Assembly (NCBI GenBank): GCA_963747865.1
Contig: CAVVHK010000109.1
Location: 1-64,000, forward strand
DNA: 64,000 bases
Direction of reading: 5' to 3'
Source: an uncultured delta proteobacterium
GTDB lineage: Bacteria; Desulfobacterota; Desulfomonilia; Desulfomonilales; Desulfomonilaceae
Shown: in pieces, positions 9,093-42,943 of the stretch
Position numbering within the stretch: position 1 is the first letter of the stretch
Layout of the letters: each line of letters opens with the position of its first letter
Translations under genes and position numbers: made by a program
The notes under the pieces: model-generated
Told to the model about the DNA's origin: nothing
Seen by the model: the letters and a program-made list of their open reading frames with translations, nothing else
The model's database searches: none

Positions 9093-10104
9093 GATGGAAT
9101 TGAGGATAGCGGCTCCGAATAGAATAGACCTCGGTGGGGGCACAACGGATCTGTACCCGCTGTATCTTTTTATGGACGGCGGCTGCACGGTAAACGCGGC
9201 CATCAGCGTGCGGAGCATGGTCACCTTTAGGACTCGCTCCACTGCGGGCATACGCATAGTCTCAGAAGATTTGGAGAAATCCGTTGAAGCCGCGGCGCCG
9301 GAAGATCTGCCCTTAGACGGGCCGCTGGGACTGATTGCAAGGGCAGTCAGGATGTTTCCTCCCAAGAACGGCTTGGAGATTATCACATGCAATCAAGCTC
9401 CGGCCGGCTCCGGTCTTGGCGCGTCGAGCGCTCTCCTGGTGGCCTTAATTCAGGGATTGCAGTATTTGAGATCAGAGCTTGAGGAACCGGAGAGTGTCGT
9501 CAAACTCGCAGTTAACATAGAAGCCGCGTCCATCGGGGTGCCGGCTGGAAGCCAGGACCATATAGCATCCGTGTACGGCGGCGTTTCGGTGCTGGAGTTC
9601 GGACACCGGGAATTCTCCCGCACTTCGTTGCCCAACGACTCGGGTTCCACGGACAAACTGGAGCAGTCACTTGTTTTATCCTTTACCGGTGAGAACCGGT
9701 TCTCAGGTATGAACAACTGGGAAATAACAAAGGGATTCATTGACGACAAGAACGGTATCAGACAAAAACTCACCAAAATAAGAGACATAGCTCGCTCAAT
9801 GGCGGAAGGCCTGCTTGCGGGAGACTGGGACGCAGTGGGATCTCTGATTGACGAAGAATGGCAGGTCAGACGAACCCTCGCCGACCTGGTTAGCACTCCA
9901 AGAGTTGAAGCGATTATGTTGGCGGCTGCGGAAGCCGGCGCTCTGGCCAACAAGATTTGCGGCGCAGGCGGAGGCGGTTGCATGATCACGTTTGTGGAGC
10001 CGGAGAAAAGATCGGAAGTCGAGAAGGCTATAGTCAACGCAGGAGGCACACTGATGCCGTTTACTATAGACCGACAGGGCGTGCGGATTGAATGCGAAAT
10101 GTAG
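9082..10104 (+). CDS. GHMP-family sugar kinase (heptose-7-phosphate / fucose-type kinase-like)
   Basis: 'RIDLGGGTTDL' N-terminal motif. GHMP ATP-binding motif 'PAGSGLGASSALLVALIQGL'. 340 aa. Confidence 0.75.
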   Translation: MDTRMELRIAAPNRIDLGGGTTDLYPLYLFMDGGCTVNAAISVRSMVTFRTRSTAGIRIVSEDLEKSVEAAAPEDLPLDGPLGLIARAVRMFPPKNGLEIITCNQAPAGSGLGASSALLVALIQGLQYLRSELEEPESVVKLAVNIEAASIGVPAGSQDHIASVYGGVSVLEFGHREFSRTSLPNDSGSTDKLEQSLVLSFTGENRFSGMNNWEITKGFIDDKNGIRQKLTKIRDIARSMAEGLLAGDWDAVGSLIDEEWQVRRTLADLVSTPRVEAIMLAAAEAGALANKICGAGGGGCMITFVEPEKRSEVEKAIVNAGGTLMPFTIDRQGVRIECEM

Positions 10105-10124
10105 GCTCTTGCCGTGAAAGAAGC

Positions 10125-10164
10125 CTCCGGAGGGAAACTTCTTGAAAGAAGTTTCCCTCCGGAC
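10125..10164. repeat. REP-like palindrome family A: ctccggagggaaacttcttgaaagaagtttccctccggac
   Basis: Perfect palindrome lying 21 bp after the GHMP kinase stop. Confidence 0.8.
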
Positions 10165-10227
10165 CTCATAGGCGCTAACTTTTGACCTTGTCGGACGTGA
10201 TTTCAAATAGTTAACACAGGCGGAATC

Positions 10228-10299
10228 ACGTCGCCCCCGCGAAAGCGGGGGTCCAGAAGGTAATGAAAACACTGGATTCCCGCTTGCGCGGGAATGACG
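10228..10299. repeat. Double-hairpin repeat family C, left copy (gtcgcccccgcgaaagcgggggtccagaa...ctggattcccgcttgcgcgggaatgacg)
   Basis: Two GC-rich hairpins: cccccgcg-aaa-gcggggg and attcccgc-ttgc-gcgggaat. The reverse complement recurs at 11530..11600. Confidence 0.75.
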
Positions 10300-10593
10300 G
10301 CCTGGGTCATAACGAATCCCCAAGTTAGCGCTTATGCTCCCGGACCCTCCTTCAAGAACTTCCAAAATCGCGACGAGACTGGTCGAAATTCCGGAACATG
10401 AGGGCGCAACGATCTAATAAAGACATTTGCATCATTCGTTGTAACCGCCCGCGGTCATAGGTGTGCCTGTTAAACGTCGCCGAATCGGCGCGCTTCACTG
10501 AATCAGCGCAAACAACGCAAAGGAATTGTTGCTAACATGCGGGATGCGTGATAGAAAAAATGTAATTCAGGAATTGACGGGAGGAGTCTAGGA

Positions 10594-16945: not shown

Positions 16946-18025
16946 TCATCTTGCGGAGTATTCCCTTATCAGATGAGCCACCTCGGCGTGTCCTCCGGCC
17001 AACGCCATTTTCAGAGCTGTTTTTCCATCATAAGCCTCAAAATTGGGGTTAGCTCCCTTCTTCAACAGCGATTTGACCATTTCAGTGTTTCCGTCGCCCG
17101 CCGCCTGCATTAGTGGAGTGCGATCAGAAGCGCTTTTAGCATTGGGATTTGCCCCGCTCTCCAAGAGGTAAGCGACAGCCTCATAATTTTTGCTTTCGAC
17201 CGCTTGCAGCAGAGCGGAACCCTGGGGGCTGTGCCTGTTCACATCGGCGCCGTGTTCAATGAGCAACCGAACCACCTCCGAATTGCCCCTGGAAGCAGCG
17301 TACATTAGCGGCGTGCGCCCGAGGGATGATGAATTCGCGTCAGCCCCATTGTCCAGCAACAGGCCGGCAATGCTTTCATTTCCGACCAACGCCGCCCAGA
17401 CCAGAGGGGCTCCCTTCTTGCCGGCCAGATTCACGTCCGCTCCGCGGTCAACCAATAGCTTGACCTCAGGCGTTGACGACCTGGCGGAGTAAAGGGCCAG
17501 GGGAGTCCATCCAAAGCGATCCACCGCGTTTATGTTTATTCCGTGCCGTATCAGAAATATCGAAGCATTGTCATAGCGGTTGCGGGAAGTGTAGAGTAGT
17601 AAGGGCCAACCTCCGGCGGCTGCGAAAAGCCAAAGGCAGACGGCGCCGAGGCCGAATGTGGCGACCAATATCATTGTCTTGGTTTTTGAGGCGGCCTTGC
17701 GCGTATCCGTCTGATGGGCGCAGGCTTGAATACTGTGGTAGCGGTAGATCAGGAGGGCCGCTGAAGGCGATAGGACAACAAGAACAAAAGATAATAGGCT
17801 CTTTATTCCCCACACTTCGCCGGCGTCTGTTGAGTGCCCCAAGGCCGCGGAAAGTAAAATGTAGAGACAAATTGGGATGTCCAGCAGAACCAGGCCGGCA
17901 AAGGCCACAAGCAGGCACTTGCGACCGAGCGGCTCTCCTCTGCGCGCATGCGCGACAGCCATAGAGCCGGCCCAAATCATGAGTCCGAAAGCCACCAACA
18001 AAATGGGCGAAAAGAACAGCAACAT
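16946..18025 (-). CDS. Membrane-anchored ankyrin-repeat protein
   Basis: About 4 N-terminal TM helices, then 6-7 ankyrin repeats ('GNTEMVKSLLKKGANPN...DGKTALKMALAGGHAEVAHLI'). Confidence 0.8.
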   Translation of the reverse strand: MLLFFSPILLVAFGLMIWAGSMAVAHARRGEPLGRKCLLVAFAGLVLLDIPICLYILLSAALGHSTDAGEVWGIKSLLSFVLVVLSPSAALLIYRYHSIQACAHQTDTRKAASKTKTMILVATFGLGAVCLWLFAAAGGWPLLLYTSRNRYDNASIFLIRHGININAVDRFGWTPLALYSARSSTPEVKLLVDRGADVNLAGKKGAPLVWAALVGNESIAGLLLDNGADANSSSLGRTPLMYAASRGNSEVVRLLIEHGADVNRHSPQGSALLQAVESKNYEAVAYLLESGANPNAKSASDRTPLMQAAGDGNTEMVKSLLKKGANPNFEAYDGKTALKMALAGGHAEVAHLIREYSAR

Positions 18026-26731: not shown

Positions 26732-26849
26732 AGGCTTGTAAAGCTGTCGTAAACATATATCACTCGGCTTCGGCATGTAATTTCTTTTCAACATTGTTTC
26801 TATTGTTTATTATTATAGTCTGAAATTATGACCGCATACAGGAGTGGGA

Positions 26850-28232
26850 ATGAATAACGAGAACGGCGCGTTTGTAAATATCAGTGGGGCGGCTGCGTTG
26901 CCTGTGTATCTGAAAGTCTTCTTCAAGGCCCTGTTCCTGATGTTTGACCGAGACAATGTCCGCATTAGAAAAGAGAGTAATATTAACGTAGTTGACACTC
27001 TGTTCAATTTCGTGAAACTGTCTTTCCTCCAGCGCACCATCTTAAGATACAGGCGAATGGTCAAAGCCCAAGACGCTGTGATCATGGACAGCACTTTTCC
27101 TCCGTATCCGTCTCCCGCGTTCGACAAGAGAATTGCCAATTACTTGAATCATCTGGACTTGACTGAATTGCCTTCGGGAATCGTATCCATTTCGACCACC
27201 AACTGCTGTCCCTATTCATGCGCTTTTTGTTCCACAAACGCGAAACGGAATCTGGATAGCGATCTGGATGAAGAGCTGCTCAAAACCACTATCACGGAAG
27301 TCGAGAACTTCGGGGTTCCTATGATAATCCTCCACGGTGGCGAGCCCTTCTACCGGTACGACCGCTTCTTGCGCCTGGTCAAACATGTGCGCAAGGAAAC
27401 TTGCTTGTGGATGTTTACCACAGGCTATGAGGTGACTCCGGAGAGGGCTCGGGAACTTAAGGACAACGGTTTGTTCGGCGTCTGGGTGAGCCTGGACCAC
27501 TATAAACCGGAAGTCCATAATCGACTTAGGGGACACGCCGAAGCCTTTGAAAACGCATGCAAGGCAGTGGAGAACTTCAAGAAAGCGGGAATTTACACTT
27601 GCCTTTCCCTGGTTCCCCCGGACGATTTCTTGATAAAGGAGAATTTCCTCAAATATTACGATCTGGCTAAAGAGCTGGGGGTCGCTGAGATCAGAGTGAT
27701 GGAGCGGAAGCCGTCCGGCCGCGAAGCGTGCCGTGGAGTAATTGCGCACAGCCCGATTTTAGAGCAGCTTCAGAAGGACTTGTATCACGACGAGAATTAC
27801 AAAGCCTATCCGCCTCTTAGCGGATTGTCCACCTGGTTGGAAAAGGACCCGGCTTTGGGGTGCCAGTGTAGGTTCGAGTATTTGTTTATAACCTCCACCG
27901 GCGAGGTTCAGCCTTGCGAAGCCTCCGAAATATCGTTTGGAAATATCACTCAAGAATCCTTTAAGACAATCTACAAGAGGGCCTGCCAAGCCTTTCCTCA
28001 TCCCGCCACCGGCTGCATACCCATGGTCATGTACTCTGAAGTAAGAGATTATCAAAAGATCAAGGACACCTTGGCTTCCAGCGAAAAGTCGGAGGTTTCC
28101 ACCAGGATCATGGCCGAGTTCCAGGCGAGAGGCTCAATACCCGGGGCTTATAAGCAAATATGGTCCATTTACGAGAAAAGGCTGAAGGCTTACAAGCAGC
28201 GAAAGGCTACGGCCGGGAGAGCCTTCTCATGA
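26850..28232 (+). CDS. Radical SAM protein (CX3CX2C) with a Cys-rich C-terminal auxiliary region. Substrate unknown.
   Basis: 'aggag' RBS 6 nt before the ATG at 26850. Canonical rSAM cluster 'CCPYSCAFCS'. 'ILHGGEPF' glycine-rich SAM motif. C-terminal Cys residues 'CQCRFEY...CEASEISFGNI...C'. Confidence 0.8.
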   Translation: MNNENGAFVNISGAAALPVYLKVFFKALFLMFDRDNVRIRKESNINVVDTLFNFVKLSFLQRTILRYRRMVKAQDAVIMDSTFPPYPSPAFDKRIANYLNHLDLTELPSGIVSISTTNCCPYSCAFCSTNAKRNLDSDLDEELLKTTITEVENFGVPMIILHGGEPFYRYDRFLRLVKHVRKETCLWMFTTGYEVTPERARELKDNGLFGVWVSLDHYKPEVHNRLRGHAEAFENACKAVENFKKAGIYTCLSLVPPDDFLIKENFLKYYDLAKELGVAEIRVMERKPSGREACRGVIAHSPILEQLQKDLYHDENYKAYPPLSGLSTWLEKDPALGCQCRFEYLFITSTGEVQPCEASEISFGNITQESFKTIYKRACQAFPHPATGCIPMVMYSEVRDYQKIKDTLASSEKSEVSTRIMAEFQARGSIPGAYKQIWSIYEKRLKAYKQRKATAGRAFS

Positions 28233-34456: not shown

Positions 34457-34624
34457 ATGGACAATTTGACTTTTGGTGTGACTCTGATGCTAATCGGCAT
34501 GGGAGGAACCTTTCTTACACTGGCAATCATCATTCTTTTCACCAACCTGATCAAACATGCCTTTCCGGTTTTCGAGGCGCATGGCGGTCGTGAAAAGAAT
34601 AAAACCGAGGGCAGTTTAAAATGA
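34457..34624 (+). CDS. Small single-TM subunit, OadG-like (Na+-decarboxylase gamma-type)
   Basis: 55 aa, 'MDNLTFGVTLMLIGMGGTFLTLAIIILF'. 4-nt overlap with the downstream beta-subunit gene. Confidence 0.5.
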   Translation: MDNLTFGVTLMLIGMGGTFLTLAIIILFTNLIKHAFPVFEAHGGREKNKTEGSLK

Positions 34625-35770
34625 TCGAGAACGTGATCTACAGCTCCGCTGAACTCCTCACTGGAGTTCGCTTCCTGTTTACGCAGGGATGGCCCAATTT
34701 GATTATGATGTTTGCAGGATTTGGTCTTCTTTACCTGGCGATCCACAAGGAAATTGAGCCGTTACTCTTGCTTCCCATCGGTTTTGGGTGTGTGCTTGTT
34801 AACCTTCCGTTTTCGGAAGTTATGGACAAGCAAGGAGTGCTCAGGTTCTTTTACGATGTTGGCATAATTACGGAGATCTTTCCCTTACTGATTTTTGTCG
34901 GCATTGGCGCAATGACGGACTTCGGGCCACTTCTGGAAAATCCGAAGATCCTGCTGTTTGGCGCGGCCGGCCAGTTCGGTATCTTCATCACCCTACTACT
35001 AGCGCTTGCTCTTGGTTTTTCTAAGCTGGACGCTGTCTGCATCGGAATCATCGGCGCCTGCGACGGCCCGACCGCCATCTACGTGACCAGTCAGTACGCC
35101 CCTCATTTATTGGGACCGATATCTGTAGCAGCCTACTCTTATATGTCTCTTGTCCCCATAATTCAGCCTCCCATAATGGGACTTCTTACCTCGGAAAAAG
35201 AGAGAACCGTGCACATGGGAGCAGTGCGCGAGACTGTTTCCAGGAGGACAAGAATACTGTTTCCCCTTATGGTGACCGTGGTCACCGGCATAATTCGCTC
35301 CGAAGGGACTGCCGCTCATGGGAATGATAATGCTGGGGAATTTTATGAAGGAAAGCGGAGTGGTGGCAAGGCTTACCGGCTCGTCCGAGAACGAAGTCGC
35401 TAACACCGTAACTTTATTCTTGGGACTCGCCATCGGCGGAACCATGGAGGGCGGCAAGTTTTTGCGCCTTGAGACTTTGGGAGTCTTCAGCCTCGGGTTT
35501 GTGGCGATTTGTTTTGACACTGCCGCCGGGGTGCTCATCGGGAAATTTTGGTGTTGGCTTAGCGGCGGTAAGATTAATCCTTTGATCGGCGCCGCTGGGA
35601 TATCCGTGTACCCGATGGCCGTGCGGGTCGTTCAAGCCCAGGGCCAATTATACGATAAGAAGAACTTTCTACTAATGCATGCCATGGGAGCCAATACCGG
35701 CGGCCAGATAGGATCGGTCATGGCAGCCGCCATTATGCTCTCGCTTCTGAAAGGCATGGGGTTCATATAG
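34621..35770 (+). CDS. Na+-transporting oxaloacetate/methylmalonyl-CoA/glutaconyl-CoA decarboxylase beta subunit. It has one frameshift near 35290-35330.
   Basis: 'GFGCVLVNLPF', 'LLIFVGIGAMTDFGPLL...FGAAGQFGIF', 'IIGACDGPTAIY'. The continuation 'MGMIMLGNFMKESGVV...GAAGISVYPMA...GANTGGQIGSVMAA' is in another frame. Confidence 0.8.
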
Positions 35771-36640: not shown

Positions 36641-38554
36641 ATGCGAGAAGGTAGAATCCACAGACAGGTAGCGTTACTGCTGTTTGTTGCCGTATTCTTG
36701 TTAATGTCCGTTCATTCAGCTCCAGGTCAGGGTGTTCAGAGTTCTTCCTCTCCTAAAGGGAGCGAGCCGCCTCTGATGGGGGTAGTCAAGCGCATCCAAG
36801 GCGTTGCTACCGTGGCTCGTCCAGGCCAAGCCCCTATGACGATAAACGAGGGTTTCGCCATACATGTTGAGGACACCCTGCAGACTGCCGCCAATAGCAA
36901 AGCTTGGTGGAATCAGGCGCCGGCGGATTCTCCAGTCCCGGTGCTGTCAACCGGAAACGCTTCACTGGGGGAAAATTCCTCTTTTGAACTCATCAGATTC
37001 GATTCGCAAGGCGGAGCCGAGGCGTTCACAGGAGAGGTGGGCTCAGGCCTTGTTCGTTTCATCAAGAATATCCCCAATACCAGTCCTCAGCCGTCCTTCA
37101 CGATAACCACCCCCACTGCGCTGATCGAAGTGTTGCCCGCCGATAGACCGGCCGACTTCGTAGTGGAGGTGCGAAACCAGCAAATCTCCACGATTTATGG
37201 CATATGGGGCGCGGTCCGGGTGAGGAATATTTCCGACAAATTTACAGAGGAAAGAATTGTCAGGTCCTGTCAGAAGGTCGATGTGGAAGCGGACAAAGAG
37301 CCAGGCCCCGTCACCGGAGTTTCCCCCCAGACATTGAAGGACCTCATCACTCGGACTACCATCCCCAACACGCTGCCCGAAGACGTTCCATCTTGCGGAG
37401 AGGGCGGTCCTGTTCCATACGAGATCGAGGGTGTCCCTGAGGGCGAATACTGGCCTCCGCAGGGCGGATGCCCATGTCCCCCTAACCAGGAATGGGTGGG
37501 TTACGGATGCGCGCCCTGCCCATATTGGAAATTCTACGATCCATACACTTGCAGATGCGTTTCCCGGTGCCGAAGCGATTACAATTGTCCCAAATGCCAG
37601 CGCTGCGAAGATGGCCATTGTCGTCCAAAGCTGTGCCCGCCGGGCGAATGGCTCAATTACGAAACCTGTCGCTGCGAGAGAAAATGCGACAAACAATGCC
37701 CACCAGGTTCCTGGCTGAACCCGAAGACTTGCACGTGTGAGAAAGAGTGTCACAAGGAGTGTCCACCCGGCCAGTGGCTCAATCCCAAAACCTGCGAATG
37801 TGAGACCAAGTGCCAACGCACCTGCCCGCCGGGCCAAAAACTCGATCCTACCACGTGTACATGCAAACGAGCTTGTGACAAACAATGTCCGCCCGATCAG
37901 TGGCTGAATTACGCGACATGCCAGTGTATGCCGAGATGCAATCTCCAATGCCCGGAAGGTCAGATTCTAAACAGAGAATTGTGTAAATGCGAGGGTAGTA
38001 TCCCTGCGTGCAACAAGACTTGTCTTCCCGGCCAAAAACTCAACCGAGTCACTTGCACGTGTGAACGAGCCTGCGATAAGCAATGCCCGCCCGATCAATG
38101 GCTGAATTACTCGACATGTGAGTGCATTCCGAGATGTCATCTTCAGTGTCCGGAAGGTCAGTTCCTTAACAGGCGATCGTGCAAATGTGAAAGCAGGCCC
38201 ACGTGCAAGAAAACGTGTTCCTCTGGTTATCGGCTGGACCCCGTCAGTTGCCAATGCCTGGCGATTCCACAAATTGAAAAGAAGGTCATTCAAACAAAAG
38301 GTTGTAGATCTAACGCCGAGTGCGGCCCGGATAGCGTTTGCCGCAACGGAAACTGTATACCCATAATACGGCATGACACGACCAAGCCTTACTGGGAGCA
38401 CCCAAAGACGATCATTCAGGAGCCGCACCCCTGGCCCGGCTCTGAAGGCAAACCCAAGTTCAATATACCCAAGTCCGATATACCCAAGTCCGATATACCC
38501 AAGTTCAATGTGCCCAAGACAGATCAAACACCCTTTAGACAGCAATTACGGTGA
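36641..38554 (+). CDS. Secreted protein with a FecR-like N-terminal domain and about 10 tandem 21-22-aa cysteine-rich modules (CPPGxWLNxxTCxCxxxCxxx)
   Basis: Signal peptide 'VALLLFVAVFLLMSVHSAPG'. Repeats 'CPPGEWLNYETCRCERKCDKQ', 'CPPGSWLNPKTCTCEKECHKE', 'CPPGQWLNPKTCECETKCQRT' and others. A DNA-level ~198-bp tandem duplication lies at 37873..38070 / 38069..38230. The C-terminus carries 'IPKSDIPKSDIPKFNVPK' mini-repeats. Confidence 0.7.
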   Translation: MREGRIHRQVALLLFVAVFLLMSVHSAPGQGVQSSSSPKGSEPPLMGVVKRIQGVATVARPGQAPMTINEGFAIHVEDTLQTAANSKAWWNQAPADSPVPVLSTGNASLGENSSFELIRFDSQGGAEAFTGEVGSGLVRFIKNIPNTSPQPSFTITTPTALIEVLPADRPADFVVEVRNQQISTIYGIWGAVRVRNISDKFTEERIVRSCQKVDVEADKEPGPVTGVSPQTLKDLITRTTIPNTLPEDVPSCGEGGPVPYEIEGVPEGEYWPPQGGCPCPPNQEWVGYGCAPCPYWKFYDPYTCRCVSRCRSDYNCPKCQRCEDGHCRPKLCPPGEWLNYETCRCERKCDKQCPPGSWLNPKTCTCEKECHKECPPGQWLNPKTCECETKCQRTCPPGQKLDPTTCTCKRACDKQCPPDQWLNYATCQCMPRCNLQCPEGQILNRELCKCEGSIPACNKTCLPGQKLNRVTCTCERACDKQCPPDQWLNYSTCECIPRCHLQCPEGQFLNRRSCKCESRPTCKKTCSSGYRLDPVSCQCLAIPQIEKKVIQTKGCRSNAECGPDSVCRNGNCIPIIRHDTTKPYWEHPKTIIQEPHPWPGSEGKPKFNIPKSDIPKSDIPKFNVPKTDQTPFRQQLR

Positions 38555-38606: not shown

Positions 38607-39323
38607 ATGATGTCGAAAGTTTTGATCCGAGTGTTTTGCATTTCATTGGTAGCTGGATTGATCCTATTGGGAATCGGCCCTGTGGTTGCACAGAAGGCGG
38701 ATAAGCCTATGGCTACCCAGGAAAAGATGATGCCCCAGCCCAAGGCTGGAGCGCCGAGCCCCGGCCAAGAGATGGCTGGGCCGCCGAAGGACAAAGTAGA
38801 GGAGTTTGCGGTCTGTTCCCCTGCTTTTCCCGGTGAACAAATAGTGGAGATGATGGAATTTACCGCAAAGCTTTCCCCTAAAGCGGCTGAAAAGCTCAGG
38901 CCGATACTGTTAAAGTGTGACCTTGACGTGAACAACGAACTTCTCGGCTTTCTGGAAGATATGCAAAACGAAGTGGCCGACGCTCAATTCGATAATGAAG
39001 AGCAGGAAAAACTGTTTCTCGCCGAAAAAGGAAAAGAGATAGAGGCCCAATTAGCTGTCGTACAGAAACCCGTCAACGAAGGCGATCTGAAGATGGTCGT
39101 ATCGGAACTTTTTGACATGAAGCAAGCTAGCTTAAAGGGCCACTTGGCTGATCTGGAAAAAGAAACGGAACAGGTCAAGAAAAGAATAGCCGAACGGGAA
39201 AAATTGAAGGGCCAAATAGTCGATCGCAAGATCAAGGAGATGGCGTCAAGCGTGGAGCAGCCGGCTCAACAAAAGGCTCAAGGAGAAAAGGCTCAGGCTG
39301 AAGATCCTTTGGATTGGGATTAG
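38607..39323 (+). CDS. Secreted coiled-coil hypothetical protein
   Basis: AGGAGG RBS. Signal peptide 'VLIRVFCISLVAGLILLGIGPVVA'. The rest is acidic and helical. Confidence 0.5.
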   Translation: MMSKVLIRVFCISLVAGLILLGIGPVVAQKADKPMATQEKMMPQPKAGAPSPGQEMAGPPKDKVEEFAVCSPAFPGEQIVEMMEFTAKLSPKAAEKLRPILLKCDLDVNNELLGFLEDMQNEVADAQFDNEEQEKLFLAEKGKEIEAQLAVVQKPVNEGDLKMVVSELFDMKQASLKGHLADLEKETEQVKKRIAEREKLKGQIVDRKIKEMASSVEQPAQQKAQGEKAQAEDPLDWD

Positions 39324-39387
39324 CGGAAAACCGGATAATTGTGGGTCAAGTATTTCGTGTTCTTGTCATTCCAACAAATTTGGACAA

Positions 39388-39738
39388 ATGAAAGGATGGC
39401 GCCACATGAGCGAAAATGAAAAAGAAAGAAATCCAGAGGTTAATGAGACCGACGTTCCCGAATTGGACCCGAAGGTGGAATCGAGAAGAGAGTTTTTTTC
39501 CAGTCTAGGGAAATGGTCGAAAGTCGTAATCGCCGCGGTCGTTTTGGGCGAAGCGGTCGGCGCGCCTGAAGCCTCTTCGTATTGGAGCAACGGCGGTTGG
39601 CACAACGGTGGCTGGCATAACGGCGGTTGGCATAACGGCGGCTGGCACAATGGCGGCTGGTGGAATGGCGGTTGGAAAAACAAATGGAATAACGGCGGCT
39701 GGTATAATGGTGGTTGGTCCAACTACTACAGCAAATAA
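39388..39738 (+). CDS. Small Tat-signal peptide/protein with a C-terminal Gly/Trp repeat array (GGWHN x4, GGWWN, GGWKN, GGWYN, GGWSN). Candidate rSAM substrate.
   Basis: Twin-arginine motif 'SRREFFSSLG' plus h-region 'VVIAAVVLGEAVGAPEA'. The C-terminus is encoded by 15-bp tandem repeats (aacggcggctggcac...) spanning 39589-39725. The nearest downstream ORFs are a Cys-motif protein at 240 nt and a radical SAM/SPASM enzyme. Confidence 0.55.
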   Translation: MKGWRHMSENEKERNPEVNETDVPELDPKVESRREFFSSLGKWSKVVIAAVVLGEAVGAPEASSYWSNGGWHNGGWHNGGWHNGGWHNGGWWNGGWKNKWNNGGWYNGGWSNYYSK

Positions 39739-40024
39739 ATGTCGATCCGCGGGCGTCGGCTCCATTAGCGGGAAGTTTGCGTGAAAGCGCCTCCGGGGAG
39801 GATATTCCTATTGGAAATCTCTCCCCTGGGCTTCCCTTCCCGAATTCCGTATCCGGCGCAGGACGGGCGCCGAAATCCCACAGGCGGGAACGCGTCGACC
39901 GGACGCCCCTTTTAGCAGCGTCCCAACTTCTTTAAGGCTCCGCAAAGGCGTTATACCGTATGCATTCGGAGATGGCGTGAATCGTTGTGAATGCAATCAA
40001 CGACTTTTTCCCACGGAGGCCCTT

Positions 40025-40825
40025 ATGCCAATGCTATGTAACATTCCGACATCTCTCTCAACATCCGCTCAATTCAAGAATATCGTTGTTAGATCTTCAA
40101 GCGTAGCGGAGCTTTTGTCTGTGGCTCGTGAGGTTGACAGAGATCGCCTCCACGGACTACAGATTATATCGCTTGTAGACGACCCCAAGCCTCTCGCCTC
40201 TCTCTCGGAGCCGATCACGCTGGATCTGGTTGTCGAGTCGTCATCGGAGTTTTCCTCCATTTACAAGTACGCGGAGCTGCTACGAAAGCATCCAATAAGG
40301 CTTACCGTGCCGGTGACCCCCGGTTTCGTCAAGGCAGTCAGGCTGGCTTTGTCCTTGAACATACCCGTGAAACTTGAAGTGGGGCAGCCTGACGTTGAGA
40401 TGACCGAAGAGCTGGGGGCCTTGGCAAGGTTTTATCTCTACCATCAGACCGTTAGCCAACCTATGGAATTCTTTCACAGCGCGCTACTCGGTTTTTATTT
40501 GGACGACCCGGTATCTCTGTGGAAAATACAAGAGGAAGATCCCGATTCATTTGGTTATTTCGATGACACCGGAAGGAACCATCTTTCCCGTCGTCTAGTG
40601 GGCCATCGATTGCCGCAGGAAGTCCGAGAATACATAGCCGGAAATCTGGAGGCTGTGCCGTCAGTTTTACAGACTTGCCGGGATTGCCGATATTTGAAAT
40701 CTTGCGCAGGCTATTTCAAGTTTCCTTCCACCGACTATGATTGCTCCGGAATTCGGGAGTTGCTGGGGATTTTGATGGAGGCGGCTCTCGAGCTTAAGAA
40801 AACCTACCAATCTACAGAAAAATAG
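40025..40825 (+). CDS. Hypothetical protein with a C-terminal Cys motif (CRDCRYLKSCAGYFKFPSTDYDC), SPASM-like, with no radical-SAM core
   Basis: GGAGG RBS before the ATG at 40025. There is no CX3CX2C. The C-terminal spacing C-x2-C-x5-C-x3..-C resembles a SPASM/twitch half-domain. 10-nt gap to the rSAM gene. Confidence 0.5.
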   Translation: MPMLCNIPTSLSTSAQFKNIVVRSSSVAELLSVAREVDRDRLHGLQIISLVDDPKPLASLSEPITLDLVVESSSEFSSIYKYAELLRKHPIRLTVPVTPGFVKAVRLALSLNIPVKLEVGQPDVEMTEELGALARFYLYHQTVSQPMEFFHSALLGFYLDDPVSLWKIQEEDPDSFGYFDDTGRNHLSRRLVGHRLPQEVREYIAGNLEAVPSVLQTCRDCRYLKSCAGYFKFPSTDYDCSGIRELLGILMEAALELKKTYQSTEK

Positions 40826-40834
40826 GATGCGACA

Positions 40835-41989
40835 TTGAATCCGAATTGCATTTCTATGATCTTTTTGCCCACGCTCAAATGCAATGCGGCATGCGAGTAC
40901 TGTTTCGAACATAAGACAGATGAAGTGATGTCCACAGCAAGATTCGCGACGTTGCTCACAAAGCTGCTGGACTACTTGGAAGTCGCGGGCCTGGGAGGCG
41001 CAAAGATATTCTGGCAAGGCGGAGAAATCCTGACCATGGACCCGGCCTGGTTCGATGAGGCTTTGGCGCTGATCAACAAACAGGCCGAGGAACGAGGGCT
41101 CCGCATCGACAACGAATTGCAGACCAATCTCGTCGGCTACTCCCCTCGCTGGAATGCAGTTATAAAGCATATGTTTCTGAATCAATTGGGCTCATCACTG
41201 GATTTCCCCAATCTCCACCGGAAACTTCCCGGCGGTAAGCCTGAAGAATTCAACAGCTTGTGGCTCAAGAAATACCGAGAAGCTCGCTCCAACGGAATAG
41301 CCGTTGGGGTAATAACGCTACCCAACAGAGCCACGCTAAAGGTCGGACCGGAAGATTTTTATCATTATTTTACTCAAGAGATCGGACTAACCGGATTTCA
41401 GGTCAATTCCCCCTTTCCGGGCGGGCCCGCGAGCGATCACAAGGATAGGCTTCTTCCGGATATGGACGAATATGCGCGCTTCTGCGTGGGTCTAATAGAC
41501 GTTTGGCTAAAAGAAGGATACCCGCGTGGAATAGGCATTTCTCCCTATGATGGGATTCTGCATTATTTCCGAACAGGCGGATTGTCGATGCTGCTATGTG
41601 GAATGCAGGCGGATTGTAGCCGGAATTTTTTCGCCGTAGATCCTTACGGTAATGTTTCCCAATGTGATTGCTGGGTTACGAGCTACCCTGAATTTCATTT
41701 CGGAAATGTTTTCCGGGACCACTCTCTTCAGGAAATTCTGGATAGTCCAGTAAGGGCGCGTTTTAGTAGTCGACCGATCGAGATAATTGAAAATGAAGAT
41801 TGCATAGAATGCGATTATCTATCGATATGTCACGGCGGTTGCGCTATTCGCGCATATTCGGCCACGGGCCGCTTCACCTCCAAAGATTCGTATTGTGAAT
41901 TCTACAAGAAGATATTCTCCAGGCTGGAACGGGCTTCCGTCGAAATAGCAGCGGGGAAATATAAGAGAGAAGATAAAATCCCCGCGTGA
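40835..41989 (+). CDS. Radical SAM/SPASM-domain enzyme (anSME-like peptide-modifying family)
   Basis: rSAM cluster 'CNAACEYC'. Auxiliary-cluster Cys residues 'CGMQADCSRNFFAVDPYGNVSQCDCW'. Canonical SPASM 'CIECDYLSICHGGC' (CX2CX5CX3C). Confidence 0.85.
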   Translation: MNPNCISMIFLPTLKCNAACEYCFEHKTDEVMSTARFATLLTKLLDYLEVAGLGGAKIFWQGGEILTMDPAWFDEALALINKQAEERGLRIDNELQTNLVGYSPRWNAVIKHMFLNQLGSSLDFPNLHRKLPGGKPEEFNSLWLKKYREARSNGIAVGVITLPNRATLKVGPEDFYHYFTQEIGLTGFQVNSPFPGGPASDHKDRLLPDMDEYARFCVGLIDVWLKEGYPRGIGISPYDGILHYFRTGGLSMLLCGMQADCSRNFFAVDPYGNVSQCDCWVTSYPEFHFGNVFRDHSLQEILDSPVRARFSSRPIEIIENEDCIECDYLSICHGGCAIRAYSATGRFTSKDSYCEFYKKIFSRLERASVEIAAGKYKREDKIPA

Positions 41990-42232: not shown

Positions 42233-42694
42233 TTACTTGGCTCCTTTGGATTTCAGGATCTCGACAATCTTGGGACGTCCCGCTACCGTGGCCAGCATCA
42301 ACGCTGTGGCTCCGCCTTGATTCTTTGCATTGATGTCCGCGCCTTTTTCCAACAAATAGGTCACTATTTCCGCTTTATCTTTGGTCGCAGCCTCCATTAA
42401 AGCGGTCAAGCCCCGTTCGTTTTGAGCGTTGACTTGCGCCCCGTTTTCCACGAGCAACTTCACAACATCCAAATGGCCTTCTCGGGCCGTCTCGATCAGG
42501 ATTGTGTTGCCTTTACCGTCTTTGGTGTTGACGTCGGCGCCCTTGGCGATCAATTCTTTCACTTTACCGGCTTCCCCTTCCATCGCGGCCACGGTTAGGG
42601 AGTATTCCAACTCTCCGCCAAAAGCTTGGCCATAAACTATCCCGGAGAATAAGAGCGCCGTTAAGGCGACCACACAGGGTATACTTTTCCTCAT
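42233..42694 (-). CDS. Secreted ankyrin-repeat protein
   Basis: GGAGG RBS. Signal peptide 'MRKSIPCVVALTALLFSGIVYGQA'. Four ankyrin repeats ('GADVNTKDGKGNTILIETAREGHLDVVKLLVENGA...'). Confidence 0.8.
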   Translation of the reverse strand: MRKSIPCVVALTALLFSGIVYGQAFGGELEYSLTVAAMEGEAGKVKELIAKGADVNTKDGKGNTILIETAREGHLDVVKLLVENGAQVNAQNERGLTALMEAATKDKAEIVTYLLEKGADINAKNQGGATALMLATVAGRPKIVEILKSKGAK

Positions 42695-42943
42695 TGTTCC
42701 TCCAAAAAACAATGTCAATCTTGGGTATTGTTTAGGGCTAGAGAGAAATCCCCTTTTCTCCACAAGAAAGGTCAAGTCAGCCCCAAATTTCCGAGCCAAA
42801 TTCAGCCCACACTCCAGGAAATATACCACAAAACGTTCCGTATTTAAGCCGTCTTTTTGCAGTGGAGCCAAAATGACGTTGATGCGGAAAACAAACTCTC
42901 GTATTTAGAGACTACACTAATTTGTCAAACCACGGAGGAGACA

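Follow-up and report, generated by a model that had tools for sequence, protein, structure and literature searches.

A tandem BR3P/CXCXC cysteine-repeat protein with a FecR-like head in uncultured Desulfomonilales, and its relation to a neighbouring radical SAM cassette

A 64,000-nucleotide (nt) stretch of DNA from an uncultured delta proteobacterium (GenBank assembly GCA_963747865.1, contig CAVVHK010000109.1, positions 1 to 64,000; hereafter the window) carries at 36641..38554 a genuine open reading frame (ORF) whose translation is an exported cysteine-rich protein of 637 amino acids (aa), 56 of them Cys; all positions given here are on the + strand unless marked (-). On sequence grounds the module repeated along this protein is the known BR3P/CXCXC repeat, and the protein as a whole is probably a rod stapled by disulfides, which is exported, bears a binding head of the FecR type, ends in a flexible basic tail and works with the secreted product of the next gene, p238; it is probably not a substrate of the radical S-adenosylmethionine (rSAM) enzyme encoded further downstream. 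A preliminary description made from the DNA letters had it as a secreted modular protein, which stands, given 11 modules and a signal-like N-terminus; its counts of about 50 Cys and about 10 modules become 56 and 11.

The pattern C-x10-C-x-C occurs in 11 modules, starting at aa 293, 332, 353, 374, 395, 416, 437, 461, 482, 503 and 526. Eight of these also fit C-x9-11-C-x-C-x1-4-C, each with three residues before the fourth Cys; two have five or six residues there, and the last module lacks the fourth Cys. Ten modules, of 21-24 aa each, are canonical copies of the type CPPGxWLNxxTCxCxxxC and fill aa 332-545 (37634..38275). The preliminary description had matched the module to no common Cys-repeat consensus, and had proposed a hidden Markov model search; run against Pfam, this search overturned the claim, matching the protein to PF03128 (CXCXC) with a score of 36.7 bits, where the gathering cut-off is 15 (E 3.8e-9). 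PF03128 is also matched in 19 of 32 members of the protein's own family, which comprises about 40 homologues, all from metagenomes or metagenome-assembled genomes (MAGs). NCBIfam holds no model for the Cys-rich protein. The best E among the family members is 4e-14. The motif C-x10-C-x-C-x(1,3)-C, termed BR3P, defines Balbiani ring 3 protein and the silk homology domain of VEGF-C/D, for which a heparin- and extracellular matrix-binding role is described in VEGF-C (bioRxiv 10.1101/2022.09.19.507521; PMC5816233).

Used by itself as query in a word-indexed search for homologues, the repeat region returned no matches, own family included; an exhaustive phmmer search was used instead, with aa 331-545 as query against 1.84 billion representatives, and gave 172 matches at E<=1e-3. 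Those with names are Artemia 'balbiani ring protein 3-like' (E 1.4e-36, 39% identity), Octopus 'balbiani ring protein 3-like', a mollusc protein, and the Cryptosporidium oocyst wall protein COWP1 (E 1e-28): the named relatives, Artemia and Octopus BR3P-like and COWP1, are secreted structural proteins. Against the Artemia protein the repeat region reaches 142.6 bits, and the highest of 100 shuffles in which Cys was held fixed scores 20.5; the outcome was similar with seven other targets. Because Cys-fixed shuffles score so far lower, the similarity to BR3P proteins goes beyond the spacing of Cys. In PDB, sequence searches with the full protein, a family profile and a 21-column module profile found no significant match, the best being that of the module profile to the VEGF-B167 tail 'LNPDTCRCRK' (E 0.24). 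AlphaFold2 (AF2) models each module as a two-stranded beta-hairpin with a predicted local distance difference test score (pLDDT) of ~76-83. EGF, TNFR and furin-like Cys repeats were rejected as candidates, there being no significant match in sequence or fold, in agreement with the earlier placing of the module outside EGF and TNFR. The possibility raised at that time, that the module would prove to belong to a known Cys-repeat family of defined fold, was borne out as regards the family, PF03128; no fold or disulfide pattern is tied to the module.

The window's repeats share with the BR3P/VEGF-C repeat an identical C-x10-C-x-C-x(1-3)-C spacing, a tandem arrangement of 19-24-aa units, their occurrence in secreted proteins and the non-Cys positions G4, L/F7, N/D8 and T/S11. 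They differ in belonging to a bacterial host (Desulfomonilales MAGs), in that their disulfides are putative, in being fused to a FecR-like head rather than to a cystine-knot growth factor or a silk core, and in having a conserved Trp at position 6 and a fourth Cys that mostly follows three residues, not one. COWP1, with its type I and type II Cys-rich repeats, is likewise a Cys-rich secreted protein, of the wall, and at E 1e-28 a significant relative of the repeat region; unlike the window protein it is eukaryotic, differs in overall architecture and contains no exact match to the BR3P motif.

The other building block is the N-terminal domain, aa 45-252 (36773..37396), an all-beta domain resembling FecR and the PupR C-terminal cell-surface signalling domain (CCSSD) and modelled by AF2 at pLDDT 85-98. 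Foldseek aligned it in PDB with 4M0N/4M0H, the putative anti-sigma factor BDI_1681 (4M0N: E 5.7e-6, probability 1.0), and with the CCSSD of PupR, 6OVK_R (E 9.4e-6, probability 1.0), over 163-199 aligned columns and with target-normalised TM-scores of 0.47-0.51. By sequence, the FecR family PF04773 is unmatched in the window protein at E<=1 and matched in 7 of 32 homologues, distant members of the family (best E 6e-10). The FecR-like beta-sandwich of the preliminary description is thus upheld by fold, that of PupR and BDI_1681, though not by a PF04773 match. The domain ends in TTIPxTLPEDVPSC, the most conserved motif of the family, with invariant columns from T239 to C252; N-domain and motif together are what the family conserves at its core: its distant members keep both but carry other Cys-rich modules.

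Compared with the FecR/PupR regulators (PF04773; 6OVK, 4M0N), the likeness lies in the fold of the ~205-aa N-domain and in a position outside the cytoplasm. The differences are that the domain here is N-terminal, directly following a cleavable signal peptide, in a protein that lacks a cytoplasmic anti-sigma domain and a transmembrane helix; that no ECF sigma or TonB-dependent transducer genes lie nearby in the loci examined; and that the score of the window protein does not reach the Pfam threshold. Neither the anti-sigma domain nor the transmembrane helix was found in the window protein, its beta-domain coming directly after the signal peptide with no further hydrophobic segment.

The remaining parts of the protein are arranged as follows. 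Aa 1-26 (36641..36718) constitute a signal peptide, judged by eye, with a basic n-region, hydrophobic residues from aa 10 to aa 24, within the helix that AF2 places at aa 5-24, and then VHS|AP; because of these features, and the absence of Cys and hence of a lipobox, the signal appears to be of the Sec/signal peptidase I type rather than that of a lipoprotein. A similar hydrophobic start is common to all full-length homologues. After the N-domain comes an acidic linker of low confidence, aa 253-275 (37397..37465; pLDDT <50 at aa 255-271), and then a Cys-rich cap, aa 276-331 (37466..37633), which has 11 Cys and takes in both the first BR3P module, a degenerate one starting at aa 293, and a CxxCxxCxxGxC segment, the consensus being CPxxxxYDPxTCxCxxRCRxxxxCxxCxxCxxGxC. 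The ten canonical modules are followed by a C-terminal knob of four Cys, GCRSNAECGPDSVCRNGNCIP, at aa 554-574 (38300..38362); it is conserved in the family, with C555, C567 and C572 nearly invariant, and is present in one to three copies in relatives. Four family members match PF23416 (DUF7107), a match that presumably falls on this knob. The protein ends in a disordered basic tail rich in Pro and Lys, aa 575-637 (38363..38551), assigned from its composition and a pLDDT of ~36; its isoelectric point (pI) is 9.7, that of the repeat region 8.3. In the family the tails are lineage-specific short-repeat sequences.

In the reading that we consider probable, disulfide state, partner and localisation, as we infer them, would be these. 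Sec export as a non-lipoprotein would deliver the protein to the envelope or outside the cell (periplasm, surface or medium), where the four Cys of each module would be oxidised to disulfides, making of the array a stiff, protease-resistant stalk. The head would bind another protein, in the manner of periplasmic domains of the FecR type, and the basic repeats and tail would attach to anionic polymers of the envelope or matrix, by analogy with VEGF-C, VEGF-A, silk and oocyst-wall proteins. The likely functional partner is p238, a secreted protein of 238 aa (38607..39323) that has no Pfam or NCBIfam match and ends in a conserved D-P-L-x-W-D: its gene lies 53-358 nt 3' of the Cys-rich gene in six loci (the window, L005, L008, L009, L010 and L011), all in the closest subclade, and neighbour clustering picked it out as the only gene that recurs beside the Cys-rich gene. 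A p238 relative of 30% identity was also seen in an rSAM locus, L066, that is without the Cys-rich gene. Of the options offered by the preliminary description, that of a disulfide-rich extracellular scaffold is the one favoured by the evidence.

Several points tell against this proposal. The hosts are strict anaerobes, and periplasmic disulfide formation in them cannot be assumed; the disulfides, like the binding partner of the head, are putative. No ECF sigma or TonB-dependent transducer was present among the called genes and precomputed Pfam matches of seven loci, or among the immediate neighbours scanned in the window. The head, moreover, is kept while distant members of the family swap their Cys-rich modules, and the exact chemistry of the rod may therefore matter little.

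The main alternative, which we regard as unlikely, leaves the Cys reduced in an anoxic periplasm and has the protein bind metal or sulfur species through its many thiolates. It draws on the hosts, relatives of anaerobic sulfate reducers, on a Cys content of 9% with CxC and CxxxC spacings, and on the distant relatives, which swap Cys-rich modules yet stay high in Cys. However, the BR3P- and COWP-type similarity extends past the Cys positions, AF2 gives regular hairpins without any metal, the protein contains no His/Cys knuckle pattern (CxxC...CxxC), and no metal-handling gene recurs beside the family.

Somewhat less likely still, in our estimate, is a role in periplasmic signalling, in which the FecR-like head would engage a TonB-dependent transducer or another sensor and the Cys rod would act as a spacer. 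The match of the fold to the PupR CCSSD, which binds the signalling domain of PupB, is in keeping with it, as is the setting of the P0009/P0014 subclade, where a TetR gene precedes the Cys-rich gene and genes for PAS histidine kinases follow it. Against it stand the lack of an anti-sigma domain and of a transmembrane segment, a sequence that falls below PF04773, and the neighbourhoods: the called neighbours in seven loci include no ECF sigma or TonB-dependent receptor gene, and across 24 loci neither family recurs beside the gene.

The proximity of the Cys-rich gene to an rSAM gene, which had led the preliminary description to suggest a second substrate of the rSAM/SPASM enzyme, calls for an account of the genes downstream. 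Following p238 is a 116-aa precursor (39388..39738) that has (NGGWH)n repeats and whose leader, SRREFF..LGKWSK, is twin-arginine-like; then p282, a 282-aa partner without a Pfam match (39977..40825), and the rSAM/SPASM maturase, identified by the Pfam SPASM and Radical_SAM families (40835..41989). The same leader (RR[DE]F[LF]..LGKWSK), again with Gly-rich W-x-N repeats, is found in 20 related loci examined. W-x-N is the i/i+2 Trp-Asn motif of enzymes that form three-residue cyclophanes (PMC11002830), and the 116-aa Gly-rich W-x-N repeat protein is the probable substrate of the cassette's rSAM enzyme. NCBIfam has no model for precursor or p282. For the enzyme its nearest models are DynA, DarE and GrrM/OscB, all scoring far below their cut-offs (DynA 138 bits against 450, GrrM/OscB 75 against 310); the QhpD model gives 31 bits against a cut-off of 453 and the SCIFF maturase model 32. 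The nearest families of the enzyme are makers of C-C cyclophanes on aromatic residues, not of thioethers. An rSAM scan returned 482 metagenome relatives, in the best 80 of which p282 precedes the rSAM gene at most loci: precursor, p282 and rSAM make up a widespread, apparently uncurated cassette resembling those of ribosomally synthesised and post-translationally modified peptides. Its rSAM/SPASM enzyme and W-x-N repeat precursor liken it to the triceptide systems OscB/GrrM and XncB, with their Gly-rich repeat precursors (PMC11002830), from which it differs in NCBIfam scores far below cut-off, in the twin-arginine-like leader and in the conserved 282-aa partner; its conserved components do not include the Cys-rich protein.

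Co-conservation of the Cys-rich gene with this cassette was probed in both directions with tblastn, the genome loci being drawn from GTDB contigs representing one genome per species, and the rSAM loci counted as informative being the 22 of the best 80 whose upstream sequence extends to 4.3 kb or more. The pair p282 and rSAM is present at two of the 21 genome loci that carry the Cys-rich family (L009 and L010); conversely, the Cys-rich gene is present at one of the 22 informative rSAM loci, L030, identical in sequence to L010. In L008 (= L002) the Cys-rich gene, p238 and the precursor are followed by an SDR gene which the window has on the far side of the rSAM genes, the segment p282-rSAM-ankyrin being missing relative to the window. 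The precursor there, at 12872-13261 of L008 directly after p238, is an orphan W-x-N repeat protein with no adjoining p282 or rSAM. L011 has p238 only of the downstream set. Adjacency of the Cys-rich gene to a triceptide-type rSAM cassette is limited to one Desulfomonilales subclade.

That the protein is nonetheless a second, protein-sized substrate of the adjacent enzyme, receiving Trp-to-Asn C-C cyclophanes on W-L-N before export, seems to us highly improbable. The Cys-rich gene shares its strand with rSAM, which lies 4.2 kb downstream, with short gaps and no predicted terminator among the first three genes, in a terminator scan that is itself uninformative, and the arrangement of Cys-rich gene and rSAM is kept in four loci (the window, L001/L009, L005 and L010/L030). 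Five modules contain W-L-N, and FLN and FYD occur besides, which formally fits the i/i+2 aromatic-x-Asn/Asp motif for cyclophanes (PMC11002830); W-L-N is also similar to the W-H-N that recurs in the precursor nearby. On the other side, p282 and rSAM, with a Gly-rich W-x-N precursor of their own, are widespread (the 482 relatives) and have the Cys-rich gene at a single informative locus, and 19 of the 21 genome loci with the Cys-rich family are without the cassette; W-F-N and W-L-D persist in relatives lacking the cassette, as would be expected of a structural residue on strand 1 of the hairpin; L008 retains Cys-rich gene, p238 and precursor but no adjoining p282 or rSAM; and the Cys-rich protein has a Sec leader, the precursor a twin-arginine-like one. 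The suggestion of a second substrate thus failed its co-conservation check (2 of 21 and 1 of 22 loci), and a small probability stays on it because five modules carry W-L-N resembling the W-x-N of the precursor.

Thioethers formed from Cys by the rSAM enzyme, whether of the QhpC/QhpD type, as had also been proposed, or of the sactipeptide type, are extremely improbable and the QhpC type was rejected on grounds of both co-occurrence and enzyme family: many Cys do have acidic residues nearby and an rSAM/SPASM gene lies close by, but co-occurrence fails in the same way, the enzyme scores 31 bits with QhpD (cut-off 453) and 32 with the SCIFF maturase against 75-138 with cyclophane- and darobactin-type models, and homology to an extracellular repeat of the disulfide type accounts for the Cys pattern.

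A more far-reaching proposal, which we would rate a very long shot, is that, in the Desulfomonilales subclade that has their genes side by side, the Cys-rich protein, p238 and the twin-arginine-exported W-x-N protein form one system in which the rSAM enzyme also crosslinks W-L-N before export, making the Cys-rich protein a protein-sized 'triceptide' substrate; a milder version would place true homologues of the BR3P/VEGF-C silk-homology repeat in bacteria. For cluster mining, the Cys-rich protein ought not to count as an rSAM substrate, the probable real one being the Gly-rich W-x-N repeat protein.

The array of modules contains an internal duplication. A direct DNA repeat with a period of 198 nt aligns 37820-37992 with 38018-38190, ungapped and at 76% identity; set in codon register it corresponds to two tandem three-module blocks, aa 395-460 (37823..38020) and aa 461-525 (38021..38215). 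These are identical at 146 of 198 nt (74%) and at 50 of 66 aa; their 49 differences are distributed 9/6/34 over the three codon positions, with dN 0.126 and dS saturated. P0001, an orthologue of 82% identity, has the same 11 modules, and P0002-P0010 have the three-module block once. We date the duplication to after the split from P0002-P0010 and before that of window and P0001, since P0001 has both copies and P0002-P0010 one. The ~198-bp duplication of three modules that the preliminary description reported therefore exists but, at 74% nt identity with dS saturated and common to P0001, is not recent: it is old and has since been kept under purifying selection. The blocks had been placed at 37873-38070 and 38069-38230, the second of which starts 2 nt out of register; its coordinates as they stand yield an identity of 25%, and of 67% with a 198-nt offset. 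Nor, with dS saturated, is the module array of the window gene still expanding, as had been supposed.

The recently expanded array in the window gene is another one: a 15-nt tandem repeat in the tail, 4.5 copies at 38452..38518 with 88% matches in Tandem Repeats Finder, that encodes PKFNI/PKSDI pentapeptides and has a single copy of its unit in P0001. Recent amplification of modules does occur in a relative, L003 (homologue P0009), where 10068-10562 holds at least three tandem copies of a 132-nt two-module unit at 97-98% nt identity; the unit is present in lower number in P0014, a close homologue. A comparison of repeat counts, proposed in the preliminary description, gave 8 to 11 modules in the close relatives examined.

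The labels of the MAGs in which the 21 genome loci with the family lie are Desulfomonilales, Desulfomonilaceae, Desulfomonile, Syntrophaceae, Syntrophales and Thermodesulfobacteriota, or, more broadly, delta proteobacterium, Deltaproteobacteria and Pseudomonadota. This is then a bacterial family, seen in MAGs only, in which 8-11 well-conserved BR3P copies are fused to a FecR-type domain. The BR3P/CXCXC repeat has been described as an animal silk and VEGF-C signature, and a VEGF-C review calls its phylogenetic origin unknown (PMC5816233); both building blocks are known families, and their architecture and bacterial host appear to be undescribed in the literature searched. Another bacterial occurrence is P0041 (1165 aa, 132 Cys), in which the BR3P motif is present in exact form 13 times, encoded at 8001-11498 of L109, a plainly bacterial contig, and unrelated to the Cys-rich family of the window. 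Together the family and P0041 show that the BR3P module exists in bacteria and can amplify there, and they offer a tractable, intron-free system for determining the fold and the disulfide map of the module. Related Cys-rich repeats were also seen in P0042, P0045 and P0051 (1300-1550 aa), which carry a C-terminal TraN domain of F-type type IV secretion systems (PF06986) and in which no exact BR3P motif was found.

The Cys-rich gene is preceded by an 870-nt spacer, with a purine-rich ribosome-binding site directly 5' of the start. Rfam matched nothing in this spacer, its sole match in the whole window being one tRNA, and a scan for promoters and terminators, which found no more than shuffled sequence would give, was uninformative. 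Antisense to the precursor lies a QPPL-rich ORF of 118 aa, 39366-39722 (-), most likely a mirror of the GGWHN repeat and not a gene. Just past the rSAM gene, 42233-42871 (-) encodes a protein of ankyrin repeats that apparently has a signal peptide; ~25 kb upstream, at ~16949-17611 (-), is another region of such repeats, with 34% identity.

Elsewhere in the window, the segment 4001-6000 has a G+C content of 0.644, as against ~0.50-0.55 in the remainder, and contains no rRNA or other RNA by Rfam. A second radical SAM/SPASM protein, of 462 aa with an N-terminal extension of ~110 aa, is encoded at 26844-28232; its nearest models, NirJ2 and AhbD, score far below their cut-offs. Finally, the gene for the beta subunit of a Na+-transporting oxaloacetate decarboxylase (PF03977), 34621-35770, is split into two overlapping ORFs, 34621-35403 covering profile positions 2-200 and 35318-35770 positions 206-349; it is either a frameshift pseudogene or the product of a sequencing error, and the syntenic gene of L002 is intact, at 382 aa.

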